A stretch of 64,000 nucleotides of DNA from an uncultured Chloroflexia bacterium (GCA_963720755.1 CAVRGP010000006.1:64001-128000); one strand, 5' to 3'; positions 23,438 to 30,733 are shown, numbered from the stretch's first letter. The notes: generated from the sequence alone by a model not told the origin. Translations and numbers: made by a program.

Positions 23438-23457
23438 TCGTAACGATGTCCGAACGA
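23438..23457 (+). promoter_or_regulatory. candidate operator/activator site 1 (11-bp-period direct repeat)
   Basis: TCGTAACGATGTCCGAACGA; 18/20 identical to 28356-28375. Confidence 0.6.
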
Positions 23458-23478
23458 TGGATGTGGATGATGCGCGAG

Positions 23479-23631
23479 ATGGGATCGAGTCAAGCCGCTG
23501 TGAACCCGCCGCGGGCGGCCGCCCCGCGGGCGGCCGCCCCGCGGTCATCGCCAACGCCGTCGGTCGCTCTGGCGTTCGCCGTCTCAGGCCTCGTCGTGAG
23601 GGTCGGCGCGATCCGGGCGGACCGCCGGTGA
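23479..23631 (+). CDS. putative 50-aa small protein
   Basis: ATG 7 nt after GATGAT; PRAAA repeated; hydrophobic C-terminus; TGA overlaps the GTG of the next gene. Confidence 0.35.
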   Translation: MGSSQAAVNPPRAAAPRAAAPRSSPTPSVALAFAVSGLVVRVGAIRADRR

Positions 23632-24739
23632 GCCGGGGCCGTCTCGCATGGGCGATCGCCATCGTCGACATCGTGGCGATCTTGATCGTGAGCGTGGTCG
23701 ACCCGAACCTCGACGGAGCTTCAGGCCTCCTGTATGCGGTTGGGATCGCCTCGTTCGTGCTTGTTGGAGCGTTGTTGCGCTCGCGCGTCCCCGACAATCC
23801 GATCGGCGGACTCCTGATCATCGCCGGAACCCTGCTCGTGGTGTCTGTGAGCATCGGCACCTACTCGGATCTCGCGGTCCTGCGCACTCCGCCGTGGCCC
23901 GCGGCCAGCCTCGCCCGAACGATCGGTGACGCGACGTTCATCTACCCGTTCGCGATCGCCTTCATCGGGATCCCGCTCGTGTTCCCGGACGGCCATCTGC
24001 CGTCGCCACGCTTCCGATGGGTCGCCTGGCTCGCGATCGCTGACGGGGTCGCCTGGGCTTCAGGAGCGCTCCTCTCGACGCCGACCGACGGCTTCGTCCT
24101 GATCGCAACGATCGTGAGCTTCAGCGGCGCCATGATCGCCGTCGGGCTCCGGTTCCGACATGGGAACGCCGTTGAGCGCCAGCAGGTCAAGTGGCCCCTG
24201 GCCACGGCGGGTTTGGGTGTCTTGGCCCTCGCAGGGAGCTTGTTCACGGTCGAGGTGTCCCCGGACCTCTCCAACGCCTTCGACATTGTCGGCATCCTGG
24301 TCTTCTTCGCCTTGCCGGTGGTGATCGGCACAGCCATCCTGCGCTATCGGCTGTACGAGATCGACCGGATCGTGTCCCGGACGATCGGCTATGGCCTGGT
24401 GACCGGGGTGCTGGTGATCGTCTTCGCCGGTGCGGTCATCGCCTTCGAGGCGATCCTGGCCGGGGTGACCGATACCGGTGGGGAGACCCTTGCGGTAGCC
24501 GGTTCCACGTTGCTCGCGTTCGCCCTGTTCCAGCCGTTGCGGCGGCGGGTCCAGCGGGCGGTCGATCGACGGTTCGATCGGAGCCGCTATGACGGGGAGC
24601 GGACGAGTGCCGCGTTCAGTCCGAACGCTTGCGCGATGAGGTCGACCTGGCCACGGTCACCGCCGATCTCGATGCCACCGTCCGGGGTGTCATGGCACCG
24701 ACCGCGATGAGCGTCTGGCTGCGGGGGGCGGGGCGGTGA
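23628..24739 (+). CDS. multi-TM receptor-like paralog 1 (2-nt insertion at 24621-24622)
   Basis: R.P.N.IG, FPDG.LPS.R and AILRYRLYEID. Removing CC restores LRDEVDL...SVWLRGAGR* with GTGA overlap into paralog 2. Confidence 0.8.
24333..24726 (+). repeat. conserved 3' block, copy in paralog 1
   Basis: Near-identical to 25516-25907 and 27914-28305. Confidence 0.95.
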
Positions 24740-25920
24740 GGCGGAGACGCTGGCCGTGGCTTGTCGCGCTCGTGGCAATGGCCACCTTCATCGTCGCCTC
24801 AGGGGTGGATCCGAAGCTAGATGTGAGTGCGAACGCACTCTTCTTCAGTATCGTCGTGGCCTGCGGCTTCGTCGGCGCGCTTCTGATGACCCGCGCGCCC
24901 GGCAATAGGATCGGCTCCCTGCTGCTGACCTCGGGGATCATGTTGACCGCAGGCGTGACCCTGTCGACGTACTCGGAGCTCGGGTCTGGGTCCGTGCCGA
25001 TTTGGACAGGCACCGCTGTGGCCGGCTTGCTTGCCGACACCTTCTATATCTACCCGGTGATCATTGCTCTGATCGGCATCCCGCTCATCTTCCCGGATGG
25101 CCACCTCCCGTCCCGGCGATTCCGCTGGGTCGCCTGGCTCACGATCCTGGCGATGGCCGCCATCACGATCGCGGCGGTGTTGTATCCCGGTGAGGTTGGG
25201 AAGACTGGTTTGGACAACCCCCTGGGGATCCCCGCCCTCGTGCCAGTCTTCGATGCGCTCAACAACTTCGCGGATCTCACCGCGCCCATCGGGTTCGGCG
25301 GTGCCCTGGCTGCCGTCTGGATTCGGTTCCACCGAGGTGATCCGATCATCCGCGAGCAGATCAAGTGGTTGCTGGCCACGGCCGGCGTGGCCGCAGTCGC
25401 GTTCCCGACCGCCTTCATCCTTTCCCTGGCGGCCCCCGAATTGGAGGGGTTGGCCAGCGGGCTGTTCCTGCTCGGGTTCGTGGCCATGCTGGCCCTGCCC
25501 ATCGCCATCGGCATCGCCATCCTGCGCTATCGGCTGTACGAGATCGACCGGATCGTGTCCCGGACGATCGGCTATGGCCTGGTGACCGGGGTGCTGGTGA
25601 TCGTCTTCGCCGGTGCGGTCATCGCCTTCGAGGCGATCCTGGCCGGGGTGACCGATACCGGTGGGGAGACCCTTGCGGTAGCCGGTTCCACGTTGCTCGC
25701 GTTCGCCCTGTTCCAGCCGTTGCGGCGGCGGGTCCAGCGGGCGGTCGATCGACGGTTCGATCGGAGCCGCTATGACGGGGAGCGGACGAGTGCCGCCTTC
25801 AGTGAACGCTTGCGCGATGAGGTCGACCTGGCCACCGTCACGGCCGATCTCGATGCCACCGTCCGGGGGGTCATGGCACCGACCGGGCTGAGCGTCTGGC
25901 TCCGGGGCGAGACCCGATGA
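24736..25920 (+). CDS. multi-TM receptor-like paralog 2
   Basis: Same motifs as paralog 1; ends RYDGERTSAAFSERLRDEVDL...SVWLRGETR. Confidence 0.88.
   Translation: MRRRRWPWLVALVAMATFIVASGVDPKLDVSANALFFSIVVACGFVGALLMTRAPGNRIGSLLLTSGIMLTAGVTLSTYSELGSGSVPIWTGTAVAGLLADTFYIYPVIIALIGIPLIFPDGHLPSRRFRWVAWLTILAMAAITIAAVLYPGEVGKTGLDNPLGIPALVPVFDALNNFADLTAPIGFGGALAAVWIRFHRGDPIIREQIKWLLATAGVAAVAFPTAFILSLAAPELEGLASGLFLLGFVAMLALPIAIGIAILRYRLYEIDRIVSRTIGYGLVTGVLVIVFAGAVIAFEAILAGVTDTGGETLAVAGSTLLAFALFQPLRRRVQRAVDRRFDRSRYDGERTSAAFSERLRDEVDLATVTADLDATVRGVMAPTGLSVWLRGETR
25516..25907 (+). repeat. conserved 3' block, copy in paralog 2
   Basis: 392 bp; about 14 differences from the paralog 4 copy by manual count. 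Confidence 0.95.
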
Positions 25921-27119
25921 GGGCAGGGGCGTCACGCGGAGAGGCGGCGATGGTGCGGGGTCAATCGACGGCCATCGGCGTACTGGCAGGTGGCGCCATC
26001 CTGCTGGCCACGATTGCGACGATCACGCGAATGGCGCAGGACCCGTCGACCCGGATCCTCAGCCTCGTGTTCCTCGCCGCGACAAGCGCCTACCTCATCG
26101 TCGGGTGGCTCATCATGGTGCGGCGGCCCGGCAATCGTGTGGGGCCGCTCGTTCTGGGGCTCGGCCTTCCGATCGCCGGCTACGTCACGCTGGACGCCTG
26201 GATCCGACAACCGGACACGCCGCCCGGTGTCGAAGTGGCTGCCCTGACGGTCAGCGTCCTCGACGGTCCCATGTTCCTCCTCGTGGCGATGCTCTTCCTC
26301 GTCTTCCCGGACGGGCGATTGCCCTCGCCACGGTGGCGTTGGCTGGTGGCGATCGACGCCGTGGCCGTGGCCTATCTGATCCTCGGCGTCGCGCTCCGGC
26401 CGGGACCGTTTCCCTACTACACGTGGCTGGAAAACCCGCTGTACCCACCGCCGAACGCCGTCTCGACCATGTGGGAATTGGTCTACGGCCTGGTGGTCAT
26501 CTGCGTCGGGATCGCCGCACTCTCACTCTTCGGTCGATGGCGACGTGCGGGAGTCGTGGAACGGGCGCAACTCAAGTGGGTGGCCGCCGCCGCCGCGGTC
26601 GTCGCCACGGCGATGTTCAGCTACGGGGCGGGAGCCGGACCGAGCCAGTATTCCGACGTCGGCGATCTGGCCGTCGGGCTCGCCCTGACCCTGTTCCCCA
26701 TCGCCATCGGGATCGCTGTCCTGCGCTATCGGCTGTACGAGATCGACCGGGTCATCAGCCGGACGATCGGCTGGGCCCTCGTGACGGGTGTGCTGGTGGG
26801 AGCGTTCGTCCTGCTGGTCCTCGGACTGACCAGGGTGCTGGAACCGCTCACCGGTGGCAACACCCTGGCGGTTGCCGGCTCGACCCTGATCGTGGCCGCG
26901 CTGTTCGCACCCGTCCGCCGACGCGTCCAACGCGCCGTCGACCGACAATTCGACCGGTCCCGCTACGACGGCGAGCGACTGCTGGCCGACTTCACCGAGC
27001 GTCTGCGCGATGAGGTCGACCTACCGACCATCAGTCATGAGGCGCGGGCGACGGTCGATGCGGCGGTCCGGCCGGTCAGCGTCGGGTTGTGGCTACGGGA
27101 TCCCGGGGGCGAGTCGTGA
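25917..27119 (+). CDS. multi-TM receptor-like paralog 3 (more diverged)
   Basis: RRPGNRVG, FPDGRLPSPRW, AVLRYRLYEIDR and LRDEVDL...VGLWLR; ATGA overlap. Confidence 0.88.
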   Translation: MRAGASRGEAAMVRGQSTAIGVLAGGAILLATIATITRMAQDPSTRILSLVFLAATSAYLIVGWLIMVRRPGNRVGPLVLGLGLPIAGYVTLDAWIRQPDTPPGVEVAALTVSVLDGPMFLLVAMLFLVFPDGRLPSPRWRWLVAIDAVAVAYLILGVALRPGPFPYYTWLENPLYPPPNAVSTMWELVYGLVVICVGIAALSLFGRWRRAGVVERAQLKWVAAAAAVVATAMFSYGAGAGPSQYSDVGDLAVGLALTLFPIAIGIAVLRYRLYEIDRVISRTIGWALVTGVLVGAFVLLVLGLTRVLEPLTGGNTLAVAGSTLIVAALFAPVRRRVQRAVDRQFDRSRYDGERLLADFTERLRDEVDLPTISHEARATVDAAVRPVSVGLWLRDPGGES

Positions 27120-28327
27120 GCGAGGCACGAGTCGAGACGAGGGCCGAGCGCTCCCTTGGCCTGGCCGGCCGCGTCACCCTGATCGGGCTCCTTGCCGCGG
27201 GCACGATCCTGGCGACCTTCGATCTGATCACGCTCGGGTTCTTCGTGTCGTATGCGACCGTCGGTGCCTACCTGATCTTCCGCCGGCCGCGGAACACGAT
27301 CGGCTGGCTACTGCTGGCGATCGGGTTCGGGTTCATCGGGACATCGGTGCCACCCGATCTCGATGTCGGCGCGTTGGTCCGCGGCAACGGGACAGCCCGC
27401 GATCTCCTCATCGCCTGGCTCAACGGCTGGGCAGGATCCGCCGGATTCGTCGGCTTCCTCGCCCTGATGATCCTGTTCCCGTCCGGTCGCGTGCCGTCCG
27501 GACGCTGGCACCGTCCGGCCATGGCGGTCCTGGCCATCGGGGTGATCGTCGTCGTGCTCGCAGCGACGGCACCGACGATCACGTTCAGCACTGATGGCGC
27601 GAACGACATCACCCTGAAGAACCCGGCCGCGCTGCTGCCGGGCCTGCCGATCTGGGATCTCCCACTCCTGTCGAACGGCATCGTCATCGTCATCCCGATG
27701 CTGGTCGGCGGGGTCGTCTCCATCCTGGTTCGGTATCAGCACTCGACCGGAACGCTCCGACTCCAATTGCGGTGGCTGGTGGCGGCGGCCGCGTTCATGG
27801 TCGTCGCGATCCTGTTCGGACTCGGCACGCTCGCGTTCGTGAACCGCGGAGCCGTCTTCGCCTGGATCCCGGCGGTCATCGCCTACCCGACGATCCCCAT
27901 CGCCATCGGCATCGCCGTGCTGCGCTATCGGCTGTACGAGATCGACCGGATCGTGTCCCGGACGATCGGCTATGGCCTGGTGACCGGGGTGCTGGTGATC
28001 GTCTTCGCCGGTGCGGTCATCGCCTTCGAGGCGGTCCTGGCCGGGGTGACCGATACCGGTGGGGAGACCCTTGCGGTAGCCGGCTCCACCCTGCTCGCGT
28101 TCGCCCTGTTCCAGCCGTTGCGCCGGCGGGTCCAGCGGGCGGTCGATCGACGGTTCGACCGGAGCCGCTATGACGGGGAGCGGACGAGTGCCGCGTTCAG
28201 TGAACGCTTGCGCGATGAGGTCGACCTGGCCACGGTCACCGCCGATCTCGATGCCACCGTCCGGGGGGTCATGGCACCGACCGCGATGAGCGTCTGGCTG
28301 CGGGGTGACCGAGGGAAACCCGCATGA
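27116..28327 (+). CDS. multi-TM receptor-like paralog 4
   Basis: RRPRNTIGW, FPSGRVPS.RW and the conserved C-terminal block; GTGA overlap. Confidence 0.88.
   Translation: MSEARVETRAERSLGLAGRVTLIGLLAAGTILATFDLITLGFFVSYATVGAYLIFRRPRNTIGWLLLAIGFGFIGTSVPPDLDVGALVRGNGTARDLLIAWLNGWAGSAGFVGFLALMILFPSGRVPSGRWHRPAMAVLAIGVIVVVLAATAPTITFSTDGANDITLKNPAALLPGLPIWDLPLLSNGIVIVIPMLVGGVVSILVRYQHSTGTLRLQLRWLVAAAAFMVVAILFGLGTLAFVNRGAVFAWIPAVIAYPTIPIAIGIAVLRYRLYEIDRIVSRTIGYGLVTGVLVIVFAGAVIAFEAVLAGVTDTGGETLAVAGSTLLAFALFQPLRRRVQRAVDRRFDRSRYDGERTSAAFSERLRDEVDLATVTADLDATVRGVMAPTAMSVWLRGDRGKPA
27914..28305 (+). repeat. conserved 3' block, copy in paralog 4
   Basis: 392 bp, near-identical to the copies in paralogs 1 and 2. 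Confidence 0.95.
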
Positions 28328-28355
28328 CATCACGAGTCCCGCACATCAGACGACT

Positions 28356-28375
28356 TCGTAACGATTTCCGGACGA
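28356..28375 (+). promoter_or_regulatory. candidate operator/activator site 2
   Basis: TCGTAACGATTTCCGGACGA, followed after 8 nt by CAACAT. Confidence 0.6.
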
Positions 28376-28387
28376 CCGCACCGCAAC

Positions 28388-30064
28388 ATGAGGCCCGAGA
28401 TGAGCGAAGTGACCCGCCCGATCCGCCGCCTCCTTGGTCGAGGTGACCGCGTCGTCGACATGCCACCCCCGCCGGCCGAGCAGGCTGCCGACGCGGACGT
28501 CCAGCTCGCCGGCGTCGGCGAACCCGCGTCCGACACCGGACCTGTGGCCAACTCGATCACCGTCGACATCCCCGAATCGGACCCGCTCCTCGCATACCTT
28601 CAGGCTGCCCCCGGTCCGGTGGATCTCTCCCGGTTGGAATTGGATACACCGGCCGTCAGAAACATGCGCGATGCAGGCGTGGCCCTCATCGTCCCGCTGG
28701 TGTCGCAGGGCGAACTCATCGGCACGCTCAACCTCGGCCCGCGACTTTCCGAGCAGGACTATTCGACCGACGACCGGCGCCTCCTGACGACGCTCGCCGC
28801 GCAGGCCGCACCGGCGATCCGGGTCGCCCAGCTCGTCCGGGAACAGGCCGCCGAGGCGGCAGAACGGCAACGTCTCGAACAGGAGATGCGGGTCGCCACG
28901 CTGATCCAGCAGCAGTTCCTGCCGCGCGAGTTGCCGAAGCTGCCGCAGTGGCAGATCGCCGCCTACTACGGGCCTGCGCGAGCCGTCGGCGGCGACTTCT
29001 ACGACTTCATCGAGATGCCCGACGGCCGGATCGGGATCGCCGTTGGCGACGTGACCGACAAGGGTGTCCCGGCGGCCCTCGTCATGGCCCGGACCCACTC
29101 GGTCCTCCGCGCCGAGGCATCCCGGAGCGACTCGCCGGGGGTGATCCTCGAGCGGGCCAACGAACTGCTCTGCCCGGAGATGCCGGCGCGCATGTTCGTG
29201 ACCTGTCTGTTCGCCATCCTCGAACCGGAAACCGGCCGGATCGTGATGGCCAATGCCGGCCACAACCTGCCGTACATCCGCACCGACGAGGGCGTCATCG
29301 AGCTCCGTGCGACCGGGATGCCTCTTGGCCTGATGCCGGCGATCCACTACGAGGAGACGGAAGGCATCATCGCCCCCGGCAACAACGTCCTCCTCTACTC
29401 GGACGGCCTCGTCGAGGCCCACGATCCGAGTCAGGCGATGTACGGCTTCCCGCGACTCCGGGACGAGATGGCCGTCGACGACGCCGGCAGTGAACTGCTC
29501 GACCGGCTGCTCGACACGCTGCATGCATTCACCGGAGCCGATTGGGAGCAGGAAGACGACATCACCCTCGTCACACTCCACCGGGCCACAGGTGTCGCCG
29601 AGGACCCCGATGGTGACGCGGTCGGCCCGACCGCGATCACGGAGTTCTCGATCCCTGGCGAAGAGGGCAACGAGCGCCTGGCCATGGATCGGGTGGCGGC
29701 TGCGGTCGCCGACCTGGGTCTCTCGCCGGCCCGCCTCGAACGCTTCAAGACGGCCGTCAGTGAGACCGCGATGAACGCCATCGAGTACGGCAGCCAGGGC
29801 CGCGCCGAGATCCCGGTCGACATCGTCGTGGAGACGACGGCCGACTCGATCATCGTTCGGGTCACAGACCGCGCCCTGTCGGGTGGCGTCCCGACCGAAC
29901 CCGAGGCTCCGAACATCGAGGCGAAACTCGCGGGCGATCAGAAGCCGCGCGGGTGGGGCCTCTTCCTGATCAAGAACATGGTGGATTCGATGGACGTGAC
30001 CACCGATGGGACGACCCAGACCGTCGCCCTGACGATGGCACGCGAGGAGCACGACGATGGATGA
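28388..30064 (+). CDS. partial-GAF + SpoIIE/PP2C phosphatase + RsbW-like HATPase fusion
   Basis: VPLVSQGELIGTLNLG...LL..LAAQAA, VGGDFYD, GDVTDKG, NAGH, LYSDG, EDDIT, then SE..MNA.EYG and GWGLFL. Start is 28388 or 28400. Confidence 0.92.
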   Translation: MRPEMSEVTRPIRRLLGRGDRVVDMPPPPAEQAADADVQLAGVGEPASDTGPVANSITVDIPESDPLLAYLQAAPGPVDLSRLELDTPAVRNMRDAGVALIVPLVSQGELIGTLNLGPRLSEQDYSTDDRRLLTTLAAQAAPAIRVAQLVREQAAEAAERQRLEQEMRVATLIQQQFLPRELPKLPQWQIAAYYGPARAVGGDFYDFIEMPDGRIGIAVGDVTDKGVPAALVMARTHSVLRAEASRSDSPGVILERANELLCPEMPARMFVTCLFAILEPETGRIVMANAGHNLPYIRTDEGVIELRATGMPLGLMPAIHYEETEGIIAPGNNVLLYSDGLVEAHDPSQAMYGFPRLRDEMAVDDAGSELLDRLLDTLHAFTGADWEQEDDITLVTLHRATGVAEDPDGDAVGPTAITEFSIPGEEGNERLAMDRVAAAVADLGLSPARLERFKTAVSETAMNAIEYGSQGRAEIPVDIVVETTADSIIVRVTDRALSGGVPTEPEAPNIEAKLAGDQKPRGWGLFLIKNMVDSMDVTTDGTTQTVALTMAREEHDDG

Positions 30065-30389
30065 CCACACGTTCAGCGCTGAGATCGTCGAGATCGCAGG
30101 CGGGGTCCAGGTCCGGATGACCGGCGACCTCAACGGTCGGGCCGACGAAGCCCTTGCCGGGGCCTACACCGGAGTGTCCGCGCTCGACACGAAGAACGTC
30201 AGCCTCGACTTCCACCACGTCGGCTACATCAACAGCACCGGGATCGCCCTGATCGTCCGGCTGCTGGCCGAGGCTCGGCGAGATGGTCGAACGGTCCAGG
30301 CGATCGGTCTGACCGACCACTACCAGGAGATCTTCCGGATCACCCGTCTGTCGGACTTCATGGAGATCGTCGAAGGAGACGCAGCATGA
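30057..30389 (+). CDS. STAS anti-sigma-factor antagonist 1
   Basis: GDL..., LDF..V.YINSTGIALI and IFRITRL. Confidence 0.9.
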   Translation: MDDHTFSAEIVEIAGGVQVRMTGDLNGRADEALAGAYTGVSALDTKNVSLDFHHVGYINSTGIALIVRLLAEARRDGRTVQAIGLTDHYQEIFRITRLSDFMEIVEGDAA

Positions 30390-30733
30390 CCGCCACCGTC
30401 ATCGAACTCGACCAGGATGGTGCCGCCGCCATCCTCCACATCTCGGGTGACATCACATCCGCCAGCGAGGGCGACCTGATGGCGGCCTACGGCCTGGCGA
30501 CCGAGAACGGGGCCTCGGCGGTCATCCTCGACTTCAGCAAGCTCGAGTACATGAACAGTGGTGGCATCGGCCTGTTGGTGACGCTCCTTGTCCGGGCCCA
30601 GCGCAGTGGCGGGCGCCTCGTCGCGATCGGCCTGTCCGACCACTACCGGCAGATCTTCGAACTGACCCGCCTCGATGAGGCGATCGAGATCCACGACGAC
30701 CAGGCCACGGCGATGGCAGCCGCGACCGCCTGA
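30386..30733 (+). CDS. STAS anti-sigma-factor antagonist 2
   Basis: GDI..., LDFSKLEYMNSGGIGLL and IFELTRLD. Confidence 0.9.
   Translation: MTATVIELDQDGAAAILHISGDITSASEGDLMAAYGLATENGASAVILDFSKLEYMNSGGIGLLVTLLVRAQRSGGRLVAIGLSDHYRQIFELTRLDEAIEIHDDQATAMAAATA

Follow-up and report, generated by a model that had tools for sequence, protein, structure and literature searches.

A candidate partner-switching operon in an uncultured Chloroflexia bacterium with an input GAF domain apparently divided between membrane receptors and a phosphatase-kinase

To our knowledge, the sensor domains of bacterial signalling proteins are regarded as covalent modules, and in SiaA of Pseudomonas aeruginosa the sensor part is covalently attached. 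The completion of an incomplete beta-sheet fold by a strand from another protein is known from donor-strand complementation in chaperone-usher pili. Here, we describe a locus in a 64,000-nucleotide (nt) stretch of DNA from an uncultured Chloroflexia bacterium (GCA_963720755.1 CAVRGP010000006.1:64001-128000), the whole of which is referred to as the window. On its plus strand, four tandem paralogous open reading frames (ORFs) for multi-transmembrane (multi-TM) receptors, par1 to par4, are followed by a 558-amino-acid (aa) ORF for a phosphatase-kinase and by two genes for STAS proteins. Among described PP2C phosphatases, regulation by a separate protein is found in the general stress response of Bacillus subtilis, in which RsbT binds the N-terminal regulatory part and the linker of RsbU and activates it, and Baral et al. 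(eLife 2025) proposed that GAF, PAS, REC and HAMP sensors act on PPM phosphatases via a dimeric helical linker (PMC12143880). Another described protein, Rv1364c of Mycobacterium tuberculosis, has at its N-terminus a PAS sensor that is complete and soluble, and its chain includes an anti-anti-sigma domain (PMC12143880).

It was originally predicted that the receptors carry the start of a GAF domain and that the phosphatase carries the rest. As judged by sequence comparison, both pieces are collinear with one GAF domain, the cut point is constant, and the split is conserved and co-inherited. We consider it probable that the locus is a partner-switching operon whose input GAF is split between the receptors and the phosphatase-kinase, with the receptor tail docking to complete the fold.

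Two parts of one GAF domain

The phosphatase-kinase consists, in this order, of a disordered N-terminus containing the peptide TRPIRRLLGR, a partial GAF, a long linker helix, a PP2C domain and an RsbW-like HATPase_c_2 domain (coordinates in Table 1). Its GAF matches cover only the end of the profiles, at positions 81-133 of 133 in PF01590 (residues 92-144), 86-135 of 136 in PF13185 and 78-127 of 129 in PF13492, and a whole-length match to any of these three profiles on one chain was found neither in the phosphatase nor in any receptor. When the phosphatase was modelled alone with AlphaFold2 (40-row alignment; mean predicted local distance difference test (pLDDT) 84.1), residues 1-54 were disordered (pLDDT ~30) and the GAF region was made of helices at 66-73 and 88-95, strands at 100-106 and 109-116, which form a two-strand hairpin, and a helix at 127-177 that runs on into PP2C. 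The model has no GAF helix 1 and no strand 1, which rules out a complete GAF hidden in the phosphatase N-terminus. This is the layout that the original prediction had given for the gene, namely a disordered opening, followed by the remainder of a GAF and then by PP2C.

For the receptors, the tail RYDGER..F.ERLRDEVDL..P....WLR and 5-9 further residues form the C-terminus of par2, par3 and par4. An output domain had been predicted to be missing from these proteins, and a Pfam scan of the four found no family at cut-off and no such domain. Their nearest Protein Atlas clusters are all labelled 'hypothetical protein'. HisKA_7TM (PF16927) was only a language-model neighbour of the receptors (0.83, below the lead threshold of 0.9), and none of the four matched it in Pfam at E<=0.1. 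Compared with the model for the PrsK-type XrtA/PEP-CTERM histidine kinase, TIGR02916 (equivalog cut-off 300 bits), par3 scored 11.3 bits and the phosphatase 17.8 bits; the sub-threshold coverage of this TM-GAF-kinase model was weak and complementary, with par3 on profile positions 3-346 and the phosphatase on 410-478.

The position of the gene boundary relative to the GAF was located on relatives in which both parts are fused. Two short-linker fused proteins, P0209 (782 aa) and P0210 (756 aa), were found among the longer receptor relatives, and the long-linker fused proteins P0002-P0008 (980-1138 aa), found in the same way for the phosphatase N-terminus, have the same membrane module, GAF, PP2C and HATPase_c_2, and keep the N-terminal motif of the split phosphatase internally. 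Three further 'fusions' (P0001, P0206 and P0208) had the marks of frameshifted gene calls and were excluded as evidence. Pfam GAF PF01590 matches P0210 end to end at residues 370-491 (profile 2-133 of 133) and is also present on P0209 (365-484) and P0005 (511-646), in each case opening at the helix that is homologous to the receptor tail. By BLASTP, par4 34-405 aligned with P0210 41-395 (35% identity, E 7e-39) and phosphatase 47-395 (554-aa numbering) with P0210 398-746 (61% identity, E 4e-138). The two therefore abut within two residues, 26 residues into the GAF, and the gene boundary lies inside this domain. Judged through the fused P0210, the receptor tail and the phosphatase N-terminus together span the GAF profile without overlap, which is the complementary coverage expected from the original prediction, and by transitive homology the tail is the start of a GAF. 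This start is smaller than had been proposed, as the receptors supply one GAF helix and one strand after a connecting helix, and not two GAF helices and a strand.

AlphaFold2 modelling of the fused P0209 (mean pLDDT 84.6) gave the same elements as in the phosphatase, preceded by a helix (364-379) and a strand (384-388), with block-mean pLDDT of at least 90 over 361-500, except for 75 at the loop block 391-400 after strand 1. A Foldseek search of this model against the PDB returned PP2C entries only and is silent on the GAF. A compact but continuous GAF is also present in P0228, P0233 and P0234, which are histidine kinases that share the membrane module of the receptors.

The basic peptide TRPIRRLLGR (28400-28450, residues 5-20) is kept in split phosphatases, the orthologs of which share the start M-(T/S)-E-L-T-R-P-I-R-R-L-L-G-R, with a linker of variable sequence behind it. 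The peptide was also found inside the long linker of the fused P0002, P0003 and P0008, with the Met still ahead of it, and not in P0209 and P0210. From their sequences, the long-linker fused proteins therefore look as if a receptor gene had been re-fused to a split phosphatase gene. An extra N-terminal segment of ~200 residues precedes the membrane module in P0002, P0003, P0005 and P0008, with a weak cupredoxin-like Pfam match below cut-off (PF13473, E 3.6e-4 on P0005).

The genes par4 and phosphatase are in the same frame, with one TGA (28325-28327) and no other stop between them, as would be the case if they were one gene, interrupted here through nonsense mutation or faulty sequencing, or translated as a fusion by read-through of the stop. 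A single stop in the same frame was also seen in locus L033 and in 4 of the 44 broader loci that have both parts (L088, L097, L114 and L115), and at least one indel in the assembly, that of par1, is suspicious. However, the same frame is expected by chance in a third of cases, the adjacent receptor is out of frame with the phosphatase in 11 of 12 congeneric loci, and no lone in-frame stop separates the parts in 40 of the 44 broader loci. The phosphatase also opens with a conserved start of its own, M-x-x-L-T-R-P-I-R-R-L-L-G-R, with GAGG and a conserved DNA motif in front of it. In public data, at least 120 clusters with 73-81% identity to it were called independently, with lengths of 447-585 aa (538-558 aa in 111 of them), and a few of these, assigned to Candidatus Limnocylindrales or Chloroflexota, carry the name 'ATP-binding SpoIIE family protein phosphatase'. 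The single-gene explanation was rejected on the frames in relatives, and we regard it as highly improbable. The in-frame single stops, such as the one at 13428-13430 in L088 (Kribbella), are about as frequent as chance.

Conservation and co-occurrence of the split

In all 12 loci from other species of the genus, 3-6 separate receptor genes lie ahead of the phosphatase and STAS genes, and these receptors stop 1-15 residues past WLR. A broader scan of one genome per species gave 78 loci, from Limnocylindria, Thermomicrobiales, Rubrobacteraceae, Thermoleophilia, Acidimicrobiia and other Actinomycetota (among them Kribbella sp. VKM Ac-2569), and from metagenome-assembled genomes (MAGs) with the labels Acidobacteriota and Gemmatimonadota. 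Local profiles for the membrane part, the tail, the GAF remainder, PP2C and HATPase were run on these loci. Of the 78, 75 had one or more intact stand-alone receptors, 45 a phosphatase with the GAF remainder but no tail (the acceptor), and 44 both, with five receptors and an acceptor at L088, the locus of the cultured Kribbella isolate. The 213 receptor ORFs stop at a median of 5 residues (maximum 29) past the tail profile. A tail and a GAF remainder in one frame were seen in 0 of the 78 loci, which is partly an effect of selection because the loci were picked as the best matches to a stand-alone receptor. Taken on sequence comparison, the split is old and has been kept across genera and phyla, and the co-occurrence of the parts in this survey and the fused homologs described above are what the original prediction called for.

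The receptor family is large, with 20930 matches at E<=0.001 and 3796 at E<=1e-30 in a representative search, of which some share are fused. Among the best 150 receptor representatives, 141 are of 433 aa or less and none exceeds 654 aa, and the matches mostly reach near the C-terminus. Both parts were found in 16 genomes of the genus and neither in 7, and one genome (G024) had only a weak, tail-less TM match; in the sister family, 16 small genomes had neither the phosphatase ortholog nor receptors. As kin are not independent, these counts are given as a pattern and not as a statistic.

The window's own genome encodes six receptors, four in the array and two elsewhere, and one acceptor. The two orphan receptors (C11:854713-855849 and C6:190325-191524) end just past WLR with no phosphatase after them. 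Further acceptors in this genome were looked for and rejected, as a search with the partial GAF returned the phosphatase itself and otherwise only weak matches in ordinary multi-GAF frames.

The array could also be read as a set of decaying, functionless copies of what was the N-terminal half of a fused sensor-phosphatase ancestor, and the state of par1 in the assembly would fit this. Four paralogs had been predicted to share the tail; this holds in frame for par2, par3 and par4 but not for par1, in which an insertion of two nucleotides ('CC') at ~24621-24622, as compared with par2 and par4, shifts the frame. The par1 tail (ERLRDEVDL...WLRGAGR) sits in another frame, readable to TGA 24737-24739, and the ORF as called stops at 24710 with unrelated residues. 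The insertion is absent from the contigs listed for four public soil short-read runs, in which the contigs that cross the site bear par2/par4-copy marks (at the site, a depth of 7.33+12.2 of 19.5 in X1 and of 6 of 6 in X4, all on par2/par4-like contigs without the 2 nt), and it may be an assembly error.

Fragments and frameshifts are also present at the loci of several relatives. Frameshift-like breaks in receptors and phosphatase were seen at L030, L033, L034, L035, L043, L049, L100 and L103, which suggests assembly indel errors in those loci and bears on the weight to be given to the par1 frameshift. Loci rich in frameshifts, such as L033, L034 and L035, have a broken phosphatase as well, which points to assembly quality and not to receptor decay. 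Decay is further opposed by intact ORFs of constant length with conserved motifs across phyla, and by the junctions between the receptor genes, each a 4-nt overlap (GTGA 24736-24739 in the par1 tail frame, ATGA 25917-25920, and GTGA 27116-27119 if GTG 27116 is the par4 start). These overlaps are consistent with translational coupling of the receptor genes, in agreement with the original prediction. We consider the decay explanation very improbable.

A docking model and its alternative

In the mechanism we propose, the cytoplasmic end of each ~400-aa, ~10-helix receptor would be formed by a connecting helix followed by helix 1 and strand 1 of the GAF, while the acceptor would offer a disordered tether, the GAF remainder, a long helix into PP2C and an RsbW-like kinase domain. 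The receptor tail would dock on the phosphatase by antiparallel pairing of strand 1 with the final GAF strand and by packing of helix 1 on the final GAF helix. This would tether the phosphatase to the membrane and restore a path from the receptor helix through the GAF and the coiled-coil linker to the PP2C switch, a path that Baral et al. propose for PPM phosphatases whose GAF, PAS, REC or HAMP sensors are covalent (PMC12143880). Phosphorylation of the two STAS proteins would in turn be governed by PP2C and the kinase domain, and would act on a putative sigma/anti-sigma target. Receptors in the array or elsewhere could share or compete for the single acceptor, so that several inputs would be integrated.

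A complex of phosphatase residues 1-175 with par4 345-412, par4 being the one receptor modelled, gave ipSAE scores of 0.65, 0.62 and 0.69, whereas none of the three controls exceeded 0.00; of the solved complexes, 58 of 80 reach the mark used, as do 2 of 110 mismatched pairs. The runs agreed in at least 87% of contacts, with partner pLDDT of at least 68. Receptor residues 397-406 were placed antiparallel to phosphatase 110-117 (strand 1 against the last GAF strand), receptor helix 383-394 on phosphatase helix 128-151 (helix 1 against the last GAF helix), and phosphatase 55-61 also contacted the receptor, the interface beginning at residue 55. The pLDDT of the par4 tail was 69-70 alongside the phosphatase and only 32 once the latter was swapped out. 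The tail is thus predicted by modelling to bind the phosphatase, with the GAF-like contacts that had been expected.

Another explanation, which we consider possible but unlikely, is that the split is real and the tail is not docked. The tail would then serve receptor oligomerisation, the partial GAF would be closed by a homodimer swap or be a degenerate dimerisation module, and coupling would occur via other surfaces, for example by the TRPIRRLLGR peptide binding receptor loops or the membrane. Several results weigh against docking, the first three of which also speak for this explanation. No signal of coevolution between tail and acceptor was obtained in a Mantel-type test that factored out PP2C and membrane-domain similarity (partial rank correlation 0.008, reached by 456 of 999 permutations). 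By sequence identity, the tails are simply well conserved, at 48% compared with 33% for the TM part between loci, and 60% compared with 38% within a locus.

Secondly, receptors without an intact acceptor within 10 kb occur in 31 of the 78 loci, with many single orphan receptors far from any acceptor, and eight of the 78 have at least two receptors but no intact acceptor. At L049 the acceptor is present in frameshifted pieces, and at L068 and L112 the receptor array runs into the locus end; L063, L070 and L084 are multi-receptor, acceptor-less loci of 2.6-13.4 kb, and the multi-copy arrays L053 and L085 have no acceptor despite room downstream. Thirdly, the N-terminal peptide of the phosphatase is not explained by GAF completion and is free of contacts in the complex model. 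This peptide may be a second docking element.

The remaining points concern the reading of the GAF and of the operon as a whole. The receptors alone gave no GAF match in Pfam (E<=0.1) and NCBIfam scans; Pfam finds no GAF in them directly because the tail alone is too short, and the predicted similarity of the tail to GAF domains stands by transitive homology on P0210 and not in a direct scan. The complex model may have passed on its likeness to the much-solved GAF fold and not on binding. A sigma factor gene was not found among the ORFs between 20.5 and 33 kb, and the search did not extend to other parts of the window or genome. Finally, the conservation of the receptor C-terminus had been explained by its role in the GAF, which holds only in part within the window. 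The last ~420 nt of par1, par2 and par4 (24315-24741, 25498-25922 and 27896-28320) are 97% identical as DNA over a 300-nt block and 90-91% over a 119-nt block, while their 5' parts are only 44-53% identical as protein, and par3 lies outside the shared tract (74-80% DNA identity). The tract also spans the last TM helices, therefore pointing to gene conversion or recent duplication, and the alignment is taken as a sign of concerted evolution or of gene conversion within the array. On this comparison, the C-terminal identity within the window is largely that of such a tract and not of selection on the tail alone.

The explanation without docking has to account for the same cut residue range in 213 receptors, for a tail and an acceptor that abut within two residues inside one Pfam GAF of fused relatives, and for a modelled tail that is disordered without the acceptor and ordered with it. 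In addition, the split acceptor is encoded elsewhere in 10 of the 10 genomes with an orphan receptor locus that were tested (54-82% identity, frames of 189-769 aa), and the presence or absence of both parts matches within the genus.

Natural protein-fragment complementation could be a form of wiring in bacterial signalling, with a 'plug' (GAF helix 1 and strand 1) on interchangeable receptors from arrays and orphan genes and a shared phosphatase-kinase 'socket', an idea to which we give about an even chance. New inputs could then be added by duplicating a receptor gene alone, signals would be integrated by competition, and a function would be given to a very large unannotated family of ~400-aa membrane proteins in Chloroflexota and Actinomycetota. 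A sensor fold shared by receptor and effector would, if true, represent a new mode of coupling between inputs and outputs, and would explain how many receptors without output domains of their own feed one pathway, giving a testable role to a large family of 'hypothetical' membrane proteins. A natural split-domain pair with known fused controls could also be of use in protein complementation and modular biosensors. The cultured Kribbella that carries the full arrangement (L088) makes the system tractable.

Output genes, DNA motif and comparison with known systems

Table 1. Features of the receptor and phosphatase-kinase locus, in window coordinates
Feature	Position	Strand	Remarks
Motif copy CGTAACGATGTCCGAACG	23439..23456	+	upstream of the receptor array; 2 mismatches to the pre-phosphatase copy
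Receptor paralog 1 (par1)	23628..24739	+	multi-TM module and tail; called ORF 23457-24710, start 23457/23628
Receptor paralog 2 (par2)	24736..25920	+	394 aa, intact; stop 5 residues past WLR
Receptor paralog 3 (par3)	25917..27119	+	400 aa, intact; most divergent copy; ATGA overlap with par2
Receptor paralog 4 (par4)	27116..28327	+	intact; 412 aa counted from GTG 27089
par4 cytoplasmic tail	28142..28306	+	residues 352-406: connecting helix, GAF helix 1 (~383-394), GAF strand 1 (~397-405)
Conserved DNA motif CGTAACGATTTCCGGACG	28357..28374	+	26-43 nt before the likely phosphatase start ATG 28400
Phosphatase-kinase fusion	28388..30064	+	558 aa; likely true start ATG 28400 (554 aa)
Partial GAF	28550..28837	+	residues 55-150: all after strand 1, ending with the VPLVSQGELIGTLNLG hairpin and the last GAF helix
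PP2C/SpoIIE domain (PF07228)	29018..29584	+	residues 211-399; E 7.8e-49
HATPase_c_2 (PF13581), RsbW-like anti-sigma kinase domain	29675..30034	+	residues 430-549; E 3.3e-18
STAS anti-sigma-factor antagonist 1	30057..30389	+	110 aa; 8-nt overlap with the phosphatase stop
STAS anti-sigma-factor antagonist 2	30386..30733	+	115 aa; 4-nt overlap with STAS 1

The match of the phosphatase to PF07228 is full-length (profile positions 1-191 of 192) and scores 166.7 bits, where the cut-off is 25, and that to PF13581 covers profile positions 9-126 of 127 (66.4 bits against 27.4). The NCBIfam equivalog models for RsbW and SpoIIAB gave only matches below cut-off, and HATPase_c_2 is therefore a domain relative and no equivalog. 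The two STAS genes matched PF01740 (E 5.3e-08 and 4.5e-15), the second also matching TIGR00377 (59.2 bits against a cut-off of 53.45). With PP2C and an RsbW-like kinase domain in one chain and two STAS proteins, the output is therefore a partner-switching set; the original prediction was silent on the HATPase_c_2 domain and on the two downstream STAS genes.

The DNA motif in front of the phosphatase has the consensus CGTAACGAT(T/G)(T/Y)CCG(G/A)ACG and was found ~28-39 nt before the script-assigned phosphatase ATG in many lineages, with Chloroflexota, Kribbella and a MAG labelled Acidobacteriota among them. It was recovered by a strict regular expression in 13 of 36 loci, and the CGTAACG core was seen by eye in most others, with two tandem cores in Rubrobacteraceae. 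In the window's own genome, there were 11 matches with up to 3 mismatches, compared with 1 for a reversed control, including sites upstream of par1 and at C6:190268-190285, upstream of the orphan receptor at C6:190325. The motif is a candidate for a shared promoter or operator of the system. On the minus strand, from 20540 to ~23350 and divergent from the receptor array, there is a large BTAD/AAA_16/TPR regulator with an AfsR/SARP-like architecture.

The nearest relatives of the system are metagenomic single-chain TM-GAF-PP2C(-HATPase_c_2) sensor phosphatases (P0209, P0210, P0213, P0222 and P0002-P0008), which carry the source name 'serine phosphatase RsbU / anti-sigma regulatory factor' and have 45-61% identity to the window phosphatase and ~30% to the receptors. 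As in the window, they have a membrane module with an R-Y-R-L-x-x-I-D helix, an RRFxRxRYD connecting helix, a GAF, PP2C and, in most, an RsbW-like domain. In contrast, their GAF is covalently continuous, whereas here it is cut after strand 1 and the receptor half is multiplied.

The dimeric helical linker proposed for PPM phosphatases has a counterpart in the window phosphatase, which has a comparable continuous helix at 127-177 in the AlphaFold2 model. RsbT differs from the receptors in that it binds a fully folded N-terminal domain of RsbU, and no two-chain sensor fold is described for this pair in the available part of the source (PMC12143880). Rv1364c also has PP2C and an RsbW-like kinase domain in one chain, acting on a STAS domain, and its structure (PDB 3ke6) was the best structural match of the fused P0209 model (Foldseek E 5.1e-12) and the second-best sequence match of the window phosphatase (E 7.8e-11); unlike the system described here, it has no membrane receptors and no split domain, as far as the available part of the source goes (PMC12143880).

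The SiaA/SiaB/SiaC system of P. aeruginosa (PDB 6k4e; NCBIfam NF038263) is likewise a PP2C partner switch. The entry 6k4e was the best PDB sequence match (E 4.2e-11), covering the PP2C domain only, and NF038263 the top NCBIfam match (E 3.3e-12), far below cut-off; the PDB relatives of the PP2C domain are 6k4e, 3ke6, 3es2 and 5mqh. Chaperone-usher pili differ in that donor-strand complementation there belongs to a periplasmic structural assembly with an Ig-like fold, whereas here it would belong to signalling and a GAF.

A full-text search of the literature, supplementary files aside, returned no description of a split, incomplete or trans-completed GAF. To summarise, PP2C, the RsbW-like domain, STAS and GAF are all known components, and it is the division of a sensor fold between multiplied receptors and one effector that is, as far as we found, new.

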